DNA of 64,000 nt from an uncultured Actinomycetota bacterium. Lineage in GTDB: Bacteria > Actinomycetota > Actinomycetes > JAHEKZ01. Position numbers and translations under genes: made by a program. Shown here piece by piece: positions 4,271 to 4,909 of this stretch (positions are counted from its first letter, which is position 1; each line of letters begins with the position of its first letter). The stretch is taken from the NCBI GenBank assembly GCA_963829525.1, contig CAWHIJ010000003.1, positions 2,208,001 to 2,272,000 on the forward strand, read 5' to 3'. Below the pieces are notes generated by a model. It saw only the letters and a list, made by a program, of their open reading frames with translations, had not been told where the DNA came from and made no database searches.

Positions 4271-4909
4271 TTACGCGGCTCGGGACCAGCCTTGGCATCC
4301 GGTGCGGCATCTGACTGTCGACGCACCATCGTCGTGCAAGCCGTCGTCGTGCACGCCGTCAGCTGGCAACGTCCACGGGCGCTTGACGAGGCGGGAGCCG
4401 GCTATCTTCTGCGCGCCGTAAAAGACACCGATGACGATCAACGCGTCCCCAAAGCTGAAGACGTTGGCGAAGGGCAGGGGGTCTGGCCAGACAAAGATAT
4501 CGCCGAAGAGCGGCAGCACCGGATCCTTGAGCACCCCCGAGTTGACGAACTCACCCTTGGCAAGGTCGATGCCAGCCATCTGCAGCGCCGACTTAGAGGC
4601 TGGCAGCTGACCACCGTTGAGTGCGATGGTGATGCCGTTCATCGCCCCGCCAGCAGCAATGATGATCAGCCCGGGGATCCTCCAGTTGATCGCCACGAAG
4701 ACACCGGCCGCCACATACGTCGCCATGTGAACCGCTTCCAGAAGGGTGCGGTCTGCCTCAGGGAAGATCTCGATGATGAGGATCTGCGCAAGAAGCGCTA
4801 CCACCAAGATCCACCACGCCTTGAAGCGCACATACGCAAGACGAGAGAGCTTCCCCCCGAAGAGGAGAGGGCTGACGAGCGCAAGAATGCAGAGGACGAG
4901 AACCAGCAT
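4271..4909 (-). CDS. DUF5317-like integral membrane protein
   Basis: About 5-6 hydrophobic segments; pattern N-x6-NGGxxP...GDIF...NVFSxGD recognised from memory as DUF5317; TGATG overlap with upstream GGDEF-EAL stop. Confidence 0.75.
   Translation of the reverse strand: MLVLVLCILALVSPLLFGGKLSRLAYVRFKAWWILVVALLAQILIIEIFPEADRTLLEAVHMATYVAAGVFVAINWRIPGLIIIAAGGAMNGITIALNGGQLPASKSALQMAGIDLAKGEFVNSGVLKDPVLPLFGDIFVWPDPLPFANVFSFGDALIVIGVFYGAQKIAGSRLVKRPWTLPADGVHDDGLHDDGASTVRCRTGCQGWSRAA

Follow-up and report, generated by a model that had tools for sequence, protein, structure and literature searches.

Background

The agr system combines a precursor peptide (AgrD), a membrane endopeptidase of the Cys/His type (AgrB) and a polytopic sensor (AgrC), and its product is a cyclic peptide taken from the middle of the AgrD precursor. 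MgrB and SafA are one-helix regulators of 30-50 residues that are encoded beside, and act on, a membrane sensor (PhoQ in both cases). In signal peptidase II (LspA; MEROPS A8, PF01252; PDB 5DIR, 6FMS, 6RYO, 6RYP, 9EMZ), the aspartates of the GNxxD and NxAD motifs form the catalytic pair. Here we describe a locus that invites comparison with each of these systems. It lies in a stretch of 64,000 nucleotides (hereafter the window) from an uncultured Actinomycetota bacterium (GenBank assembly GCA_963829525.1, contig CAWHIJ010000003.1, positions 2,208,001 to 2,272,000), where a minus-strand operon encodes two micro-peptides, a membrane sensor enzyme of cyclic di-GMP (c-di-GMP) turnover and, as its last gene (4271..4909), a membrane protein of the DUF5317 family (Pfam PF17248). 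We find that this set of genes forms a conserved cassette and that DUF5317 carries a strictly invariant polar site, and we tentatively favor the possibility that DUF5317 is a peptide-processing enzyme that acts in an LspA-like manner without being demonstrably homologous to LspA.

In its gene logic the cassette may be likened to agr, in that it would comprise a tiny membrane precursor, sometimes duplicated, a membrane protein of ~190 residues and a polytopic sensor. The comparison is one of gene logic only; AgrB belongs to another family and is a Cys/His enzyme, and the output of agr is a histidine kinase whereas that of the present cassette is mostly a c-di-GMP enzyme. The micro-peptides may in turn be compared with MgrB and SafA, as small one-helix proteins beside a membrane sensor, but unlike those regulators they are accompanied by a third conserved protein with an invariant polar site, and their conserved part is the extreme C-terminal tail.

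The N-terminus of the window sensor is MASE9-like. Described MASE9 sensor proteins include T. maritima TM1467 and S. venezuelae HdgA (Galperin and Chou, 10.1101/2021.11.05.467447), and as far as the main text of that work goes the outputs of MASE9 proteins (HD-GYP, GGDEF-EAL and kinases) are those also found beside DUF5317. The same main text has 0 occurrences of DUF5317, a count that does not extend to the supplements, which could show gene neighborhoods. No paper naming DUF5317, PF17248 or IPR035168 was found in the literature searched. The trio of micro-peptide, MASE9 enzyme and DUF5317 offers concrete partners and point mutants, such as D137N, D155N, S152A and tail variants, with which to approach the signal perceived by the MASE9 sensor domain. 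If DUF5317 cuts or modifies the peptide, DUF5317 would represent a new family of membrane peptidases and provide a new link from a peptide to c-di-GMP; otherwise the trio would be a new membrane sensor complex of three proteins with an unannotated micro-protein at its core.

A conserved cassette of micro-peptide, sensor and DUF5317

The DUF5317 open reading frame (ORF) encodes 212 residues, and PF17248 is its only Pfam match at E <= 0.1 (E 2.3e-23, 83.3 bits, residues 27-164). The score compares with a gathering cut-off of 25, the match covers profile positions 2-148 of 151, and an NCBIfam search gave no match. All of the listed homologues of the window protein carry PF17248 (120/120), and the family has 3,636 cluster representatives at E <= 0.001. 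An AlphaFold2 (AF2) model (pLDDT 88, pTM 0.81) has five predicted transmembrane helices (residues 2-17, 33-48, 54-74, 81-97 and 153-170), a predicted extracytoplasmic loop with short strands (98-152) and a tail of low confidence from about residue 181. Our reasoning for placing loop 98-152 outside the cell is that positive charges follow helix 5 (SRLVKRP) and occur in the 18-30 and 76-78 loops.

Directly upstream of DUF5317, and sharing one base of its TGA stop codon with the DUF5317 ATG (TGATG), is the sensor gene (4909..7038, minus strand), which encodes 709 residues from a GTG start. Its product has an N-terminal multi-helix, MASE9-like domain followed by GGDEF and EAL domains (Pfam E 1.5e-45 and 1.8e-74, respectively). 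The match to MASE9 itself (PF20972) is weak (E 0.0029, 18 bits, below the cut-off of 24.3); relatives beside other DUF5317 genes exceed the Pfam cut-off.

Two micro-peptide genes precede the sensor gene on the minus strand. Peptide 2 (7026..7130) has 34 residues, with a basic N-terminus, one transmembrane helix and the tail VVGAGKKWAN, and peptide 1 (7142..7246), also of 34 residues, has one transmembrane helix and the tail VVGAGTKWMN. Mechanically extended, the two ORFs run to GTG 7154 and TTG 7261, respectively. These starts are probably too long and the real starts are probably ATG 7130 and ATG 7246, because a purine-rich ribosome-binding stretch lies before each ATG (AGGAGG for peptide 2 and GGAAGGGGAG for peptide 1) and because 34 residues is also the length of the orthologues. 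Peptide 2 has no Pfam or NCBIfam match. Compared with orthologues in close loci, peptide 1 shows 109 synonymous and 37 non-synonymous codon differences and peptide 2 shows 100 and 43 (209 versus 80 for both genes summed), and from this synonymous excess we conclude that the window peptide genes are real and under purifying selection.

The cassette was sampled in the 80 best DUF5317 relatives in public genomes (37-84% identity; Actinomycetota metagenome-assembled genomes, Demequina, Cellulomonas and Kineosporia). A sensor homologue is located directly upstream of DUF5317 and on the same strand in 71 of the 80 loci, and 67 of these 71 homologues match in the membrane part as well as in the GGDEF-EAL part; it is on the other strand in 6/80 loci and absent from 3/80. 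Upstream of the sensor there are one or two ORFs of 30-40 residues, whose products combine a basic N-terminus and a single hydrophobic helix with a tail consisting of VGAGxKW plus 0-3 residues. With a loose motif pattern, such peptides were detected in 66/80 DUF5317 loci (92 hits per 859,200 bases), compared with a single hit in 326,098 bases of control loci (LspA, A24 and MASE9-only), and most of the loci with no pattern match have variant tails (GAGxKF, GAPxKW or GASDKWG). An earlier reading of the window made from its letters alone (the sequence-only reading) had tied DUF5317 specifically to the adjacent Cys-less peptides, and this tie is upheld by the conserved cassette together with a complex model that passes its controls (see below).

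More distant loci were also informative. Two tandem peptide copies of identical sequence (tail GANNKWG) stand before a MASE9-like sensor in L201 (5728-6203), and two identical tandem copies (tail AGGKW) stand before a MASE9-HD-GYP gene in L192 (3192-3480). The peptide of L202 has the tail GANTTWH, and in L204 (tail GAGRQWG) and L112 the peptide gene is directly in front of DUF5317. A MASE9-like neighbor was recognized with a profile of our own making at 18/20 distant DUF5317 loci, and a Pfam MASE9 match falls within 5 kb at 38/114 DUF5317 places. Neighbors within 1.5 kb of DUF5317 in 30 loci included HD-GYP (five), GGDEF (three) and MASE9 kinases or fragments (three).

Across the phylum, where the tallies of DUF5317 and MASE9 include some unpublished genomes, DUF5317 is present in 77 of 201 sampled genomes. 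A peptide profile (E <= 0.001), which is an insensitive search for 34 residues, matches nine of the 201, all nine being among the 77 that are DUF5317-positive. At MASE9 loci from genomes with no DUF5317 match, a motif-like peptide was seen in 1/20 and a DUF5317 relative in 0/20. Given the near absence of the peptide from these MASE9-only loci, the confinement of the nine peptide matches to DUF5317-positive genomes and the adjacency of peptide and DUF5317 genes in L204 and L112, the peptide follows DUF5317 and not just MASE9. The pairing of DUF5317 with MASE9 may also reach beyond Actinomycetota, as exactly the same two of 14 control genomes (Thermus thermophilus and Thermotoga maritima) match both families.

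DUF5317 is also found fused N-terminally to MFS_1 or MFS_3 transporters, in 15 of 25 long relatives in one set and five of eight in another (P0142, P0172, P0190, P0203, P0224, L200:1926-3797 and L212:3501-5507, among others). This arrangement recalls peptidase-exporter fusions, and two of the fusion loci (L212 and L200) also hold the peptide and a MASE9-like sensor. The frequency of the fusions could also be indicative of a scenario in which DUF5317 acts together with the transporter on a lipid, a cell-wall precursor or an ion, with the peptide and the sensor as mere neighbors. Consistent with this idea, some DUF5317 loci have metabolic neighbors (enoyl-CoA hydratase, HMGL-like) but lack any signalling gene within 1.5 kb, and a cluster of Asn, Asp and Ser at the membrane surface is typical also of polyprenyl-phosphate and ion-binding sites. 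We nevertheless consider it quite unlikely, as MASE9-type sensors accompany DUF5317 far more often than chance would allow in the counts given above (38/114 for Pfam matches within 5 kb and 18/20 for distant loci), the peptide and DUF5317 co-occur, and the model of their complex passes its controls.

The genome of the window has one DUF5317 gene only and a second, orphan pair of peptide genes (L229:5699-5960; G000:C3 about 1800700-1800960), whose tails are the same as those in the window (GAGKKWAN and GAGTKWMN). The orphan pair lies outside the window and has no sensor or DUF5317 gene beside it; its neighbors are a DUF2157 membrane protein, a membrane ORF of 121 residues that matches no family and an M20 peptidase.

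Invariant residues of DUF5317

The sequence-only reading had drawn attention to two strings in DUF5317 and to two GD aspartates 18 residues apart. All of these are present in the 212-residue ORF: AAGGAMNG begins at residue 85 and LFGDIFVWPDPLPFANVFSFGDALIVIG begins at 134, and the aspartates are D137 (codon 4499-4501) and D155 (codon 4445-4447), both read on the minus strand. The segment D137 ... S152-x-G154-D155 (4445..4501, minus strand) places this pair on either side of a predicted beta-hairpin at the outer end of helix 5. Further invariant columns make up a helix-4 motif, G87-x3-N91-x6-N98-G-G100-x2-P103 (4601..4651, minus strand), which contains no Asp although the sequence-only reading had set this stretch beside GGAxGNxxDR of LspA.

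The invariance expected of the two aspartates was seen in three homologue sets: both are kept in 27/27 close homologues, in 99/99 representatives of clusters formed at 50% identity (which share about 31-62% identity with the window protein) and in 51/51 sequences from diverse Actinomycetota genomes, a set in which three rows (L042, L046 and L057) come from genomes flagged as unpublished. In the last set G87, N91, N98, G100, S152 and G154 are also kept in 51/51, N75 in 50/51 and P103 in 49/51. Altogether, the 51/51 and 99/99 divergent sequences agree in eight invariant residues that are polar or glycine, both Asp among them, and we take the conservation to mean that the aspartate motif is beyond chance.

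In a half model of DUF5317, strands 137-141 and 149-152 form a hairpin that runs straight into helix 153-170. Because of this hairpin, and because residues 136-137 and 154-155 contact the same end of the docked peptide in the complex model, D137 and D155 are probably juxtaposed, in line with what the sequence-only reading had supposed. The possibility that the Asp pair serves only as a salt bridge to the Lys of the peptide tail was considered and is weakened, since loci whose tails have no Lys keep both Asp. In L202, for example, the tail ends in TTWH and the invariant residues of DUF5317 are still in place, from which it follows that they are not kept merely for the tail Lys.

Comparison with LspA and other peptidases

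There is a certain resemblance between DUF5317 and LspA. Both are small polytopic membrane proteins whose last two helices bear conserved Asn/Asp at their outer ends; in both, x-[AG]-D starts the last helix and small or aliphatic residues come after it; and the substrate helix, which is putative in the case of DUF5317, would have its N-terminus inside and small residues at its end. DUF5317 differs from LspA in having five predicted helices rather than four, no Asp at the GNxxDR position, a loop of ~50 residues between the two helices and, in that loop, the D137 hairpin for which LspA has no counterpart. The peptides linked to DUF5317 differ from LspA substrates in that they have no lipobox Cys; A8 substrates have a lipobox that ends in a lipid-modified Cys, whereas neither peptide 1 nor peptide 2 contains a Cys, and what is conserved instead is the tail GAGxKW.

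An ordinary LspA is encoded elsewhere in the same genome (L001 1492-1959; PF01252, E 2.2e-35), and LspA is present in 40/41 sampled genomes of the phylum. The genome's own LspA reads GGALGNLTDR ... VVDW ... VFNIADSAI, which is the motif order that the sequence-only reading had given for LspA. In this LspA the NLTD and NIAD aspartates are separated by 29 residues and the VVD and NIAD aspartates by 14, so the claim that the Asp spacing of DUF5317 is similar to that of LspA is accurate for some LspAs only. The larger proposal, that DUF5317 is a divergent A8 protease, is not supported: neither Pfam nor PDB sequences gave a match to LspA, the model has five helices, the GNxxDR Asp is missing and LspA is unlisted in the whole-model searches. 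PDB chains searched with the single DUF5317 sequence (phmmer) and with a 27-sequence profile gave no LspA at E <= 10. A whole-model Foldseek search of the PDB gave 24 rows at E <= 10, none of them at E <= 0.001 and none of them LspA, the top row being SPPL2a (E 0.42, TM-score 0.20, not significant). The expected similarity of fold was thus not found with the whole model, and the C-terminal half gave weak, non-significant rows only, with LspA 6RYP among them in both C-terminal-half searches (19% identity, the second highest of 50 VIA rows).

Profile comparison gave a similar picture. Against a profile of 30 LspA sequences taken from the phylum, one of them belonging to an unpublished genome, hhalign returned a score of 27.9 over 101 columns at a probability of 16.6%. 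Block shuffles (40) had a mean of 16.5 and a maximum of 22.7, column shuffles (40) had a maximum of 17.7, and five comparisons among unrelated membrane families (DUF5317, LspA, A24 and the MASE9-like domain) scored 11.1-20.0. The DUF5317-LspA profile signal is therefore the best of its kind, yet it is not significant. This non-significant alignment rests on helix 5, where NVFSxGD155 is set against VFNxAD; S152-x-G154-D155 opens helix 5, and its SxGD is put on the NxAD of LspA, again below significance. The aspartate of LspA GNLTD is aligned by hhalign with the variable S107 of DUF5317, and D137 is left with no counterpart. No Asp occurs at the position equivalent to GNxxDR, as the matching DUF5317 helix has only G87-x3-N91-x6-N98.

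It is conceivable that these features reflect descent, as the sequence-only reading taken at its word would have it, such that DUF5317 is a true but very divergent LspA relative of the A8 clan that gained a helix and whose first catalytic Asp moved into a loop. The LspA comparison ranks first among six membrane-family comparisons and exceeds 80/80 shuffles (27.9, with shuffle maxima at 22.7 and 17.7), the two proteins align through topologically equivalent segments (their last two helices, SxGD155 being set on NxAD) and 6RYP appears in both searches with the C-terminal half-model. We regard such descent as improbable, in keeping with the non-significant scores and with the missing GNxxDR Asp. 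The last two helices of DUF5317 have a local LspA-like layout, and membership in LspA is not demonstrable.

Other comparisons were made with the GxGD proteases (presenilin/SPP of A22 and prepilin peptidase of A24). Like DUF5317 these are membrane proteins with two Asp that each follow a Gly (LGD and SxGD in DUF5317), but D137 of DUF5317 is predicted to be in a loop and not within a helix as in the GxGD intramembrane proteases. Against a 30-sequence A24 profile hhalign gave a score of 11.1 and a probability of 0.1%, which is noise. SPPL2a, the non-significant top row of the whole-model search, also belongs to this group. A kinship of DUF5317 with the sensor's own membrane domain was likewise rejected (hhalign 13.9, noise). 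In the ESM Atlas, 30/30 matches were DUF5317 clusters, and with PF17248 skipped no usable named match was left; no structure of the window protein was among the Atlas entries.

A model of the complex and a possible role for DUF5317

A complex of DUF5317 (residues 1-180, 99-row alignment) with peptide 1 (the 39-residue form from TTG, 56-row alignment) was modeled. The ipSAE was 0.61 (0.55, 0.61 and 0.64 in separate runs), compared with 0.03 for the best of three controls, and the ipSAE mark applied is reached by 58/80 solved complexes and 2/110 mismatched pairs. The runs have at least 76% of contacts in common, and the partner pLDDT is at least 68. Residues 12-35 of the peptide contact all five DUF5317 helices as well as residues 102, 136-137, 149-152 and 154-155, and the C-terminal end of the peptide is directed toward the D137/D155 side (peptide residues 28 and 31 pair with 158, and residue 24 with 162). 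The model supports binding of the peptide by DUF5317. Taken with the conservation data, it fits an arrangement in which DUF5317 grips the peptide helix and offers the conserved tail to the invariant Asn/Asp/Ser site at the outer membrane face.

A plausible scenario is that DUF5317 handles the peptide in the membrane as one part of a conserved three-part module. The other parts would be one or two single-helix peptides of 30-40 residues with a C-terminus of the form small-small-small-x-K-W (here VGAGTKWMN and VGAGKKWAN) and a MASE9-type membrane sensor protein (here with GGDEF-EAL, elsewhere with HD-GYP or a histidine kinase). The transmembrane helix of the peptide would be taken into a groove formed by the five DUF5317 helices, so that its tail is set at the extracytoplasmic face against the polar cluster N91, N98, D137, S152 and D155. 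We think that this cluster is most likely catalytic and that the likeliest activity would be that of an aspartic-type endopeptidase cutting at or beside the stretch of small residues. Such a cut would create, trim or destroy an in-membrane or juxtamembrane ligand of MASE9 and in this way set c-di-GMP turnover. The logic would be that of LspA, with an N-in substrate helix, a scissile bond preceded by small residues and two Asp paired on the outer side. What is observed in this scenario is the conservation, the synteny, the co-occurrence and the complex model with its passed controls, whereas the topology, the closeness of the two Asp, catalysis, the site of cleavage and the connection to the sensor are inferred. 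Processing by DUF5317 could account for (i) the strict invariance of the site; (ii) the persistence of both Asp at loci whose tail is devoid of Lys and (iii) the multi-copy and orphan peptide genes together with the exporter fusions.

The same complex model can be read in another way, in which DUF5317 is a non-catalytic partner and the micro-peptide is a permanent sixth helix; the pair would then co-sense with, or regulate, the MASE9 domain, much as some small membrane proteins adjust sensor kinases, and the polar residues would hold either the peptide tail (through its Lys, Trp and free carboxylate) or an ion. Taken by itself we find this somewhat doubtful, although it is nearly as likely as an enzymatic role. 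It would be in keeping with the burial of the peptide helix against all five helices, with the translational coupling and synteny of the DUF5317 gene with the sensor gene, with the position of a conserved tail Lys opposite two conserved Asp and with the lack of a protease family match for DUF5317, and it would avoid a cleavage product of 2-5 residues, which is implausibly small. The proposal that MASE9 binds a ligand within the membrane, as it stands in the main text of the MASE9 work (10.1101/2021.11.05.467447), would suit it as well. Set against a purely structural role is the finding that eight residues are strictly invariant at ~30% identity, a degree of conservation more usual at catalytic or transport sites, and that the Asp pair is retained where the tail has no Lys. 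In addition, a fixed stoichiometry fits poorly with the identical tandem copies in L192 and L201 and with an orphan pair in a genome that has one DUF5317, and the MFS transporter fusions would be left unexplained.

Several of our results speak against an enzymatic, peptide-processing role, which we nonetheless continue to favor tentatively. Neither Pfam, NCBIfam, PDB sequences, Foldseek nor VIA gave significant peptidase similarity for DUF5317, and the reversed LspA profile scores 23.6 with hhalign, near the real 27.9. A cut after GAG would free only 2-5 residues, some peptides ending in ...KW, and this would be an odd product. A motif peptide was found in only 3/30 more distant DUF5317 loci (1.5-kb flanks), and MASE9 occurs without DUF5317 in 33 sampled genomes. 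Rows of the peptide alignment were picked with the motif pattern, so that its invariant AG.KW is partly circular. As for the docking, the controls were unrelated 39-residue proteins and not decoy transmembrane helices, and part of the score may therefore reflect generic helix packing; the ipSAE calibration is only rough because alignments of our own making were used; and a docked helix that touches all five helices fits a permanent sixth-helix subunit equally well.

A more far-reaching form of the processing idea is that DUF5317 represents the first of a new kind of aspartic peptidase working beside the membrane. Co-encoded membrane pro-peptides of 30-40 residues, its dedicated substrates, would be cut at the stretch of small residues before the K-W tail and a MASE9 ligand would thereby be made or unmasked. 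With the sensor and a processing enzyme that is sometimes fused to an MFS exporter, the whole would amount to an agr-like circuit that acts on c-di-GMP. We consider this unlikely as it stands. If it were correct, the circuit would be widely distributed among Actinomycetota and would probably occur in Chloroflexota, Thermus and Thermotoga as well.

Other features of the locus

A scan of 4000-7500 for promoters and terminators gave nothing above the shuffled expectation, and Rfam, searched over 3500-8500 at E <= 1, returned nothing, so that a c-di-GMP riboswitch was not detected at this copy. Beyond DUF5317 the window encodes a cytoplasmic EAL-GAF protein (1530-2843, plus strand; EAL 2.1e-41, GAF 1.5e-7). 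An EAL-type ORF is located ~2-2.6 kb beyond DUF5317, on the opposite strand, in 12/13 of the closest relatives' loci (L062-L074, all but L071), and going by this recurrence the EAL-GAF gene may be a second c-di-GMP enzyme that travels with the cassette. On the other side of the operon there is a gene for a stand-alone GAF protein of 178 residues (8495-9031, minus strand; E 5.1e-5), located upstream of an arginase-family gene (7424-8464).
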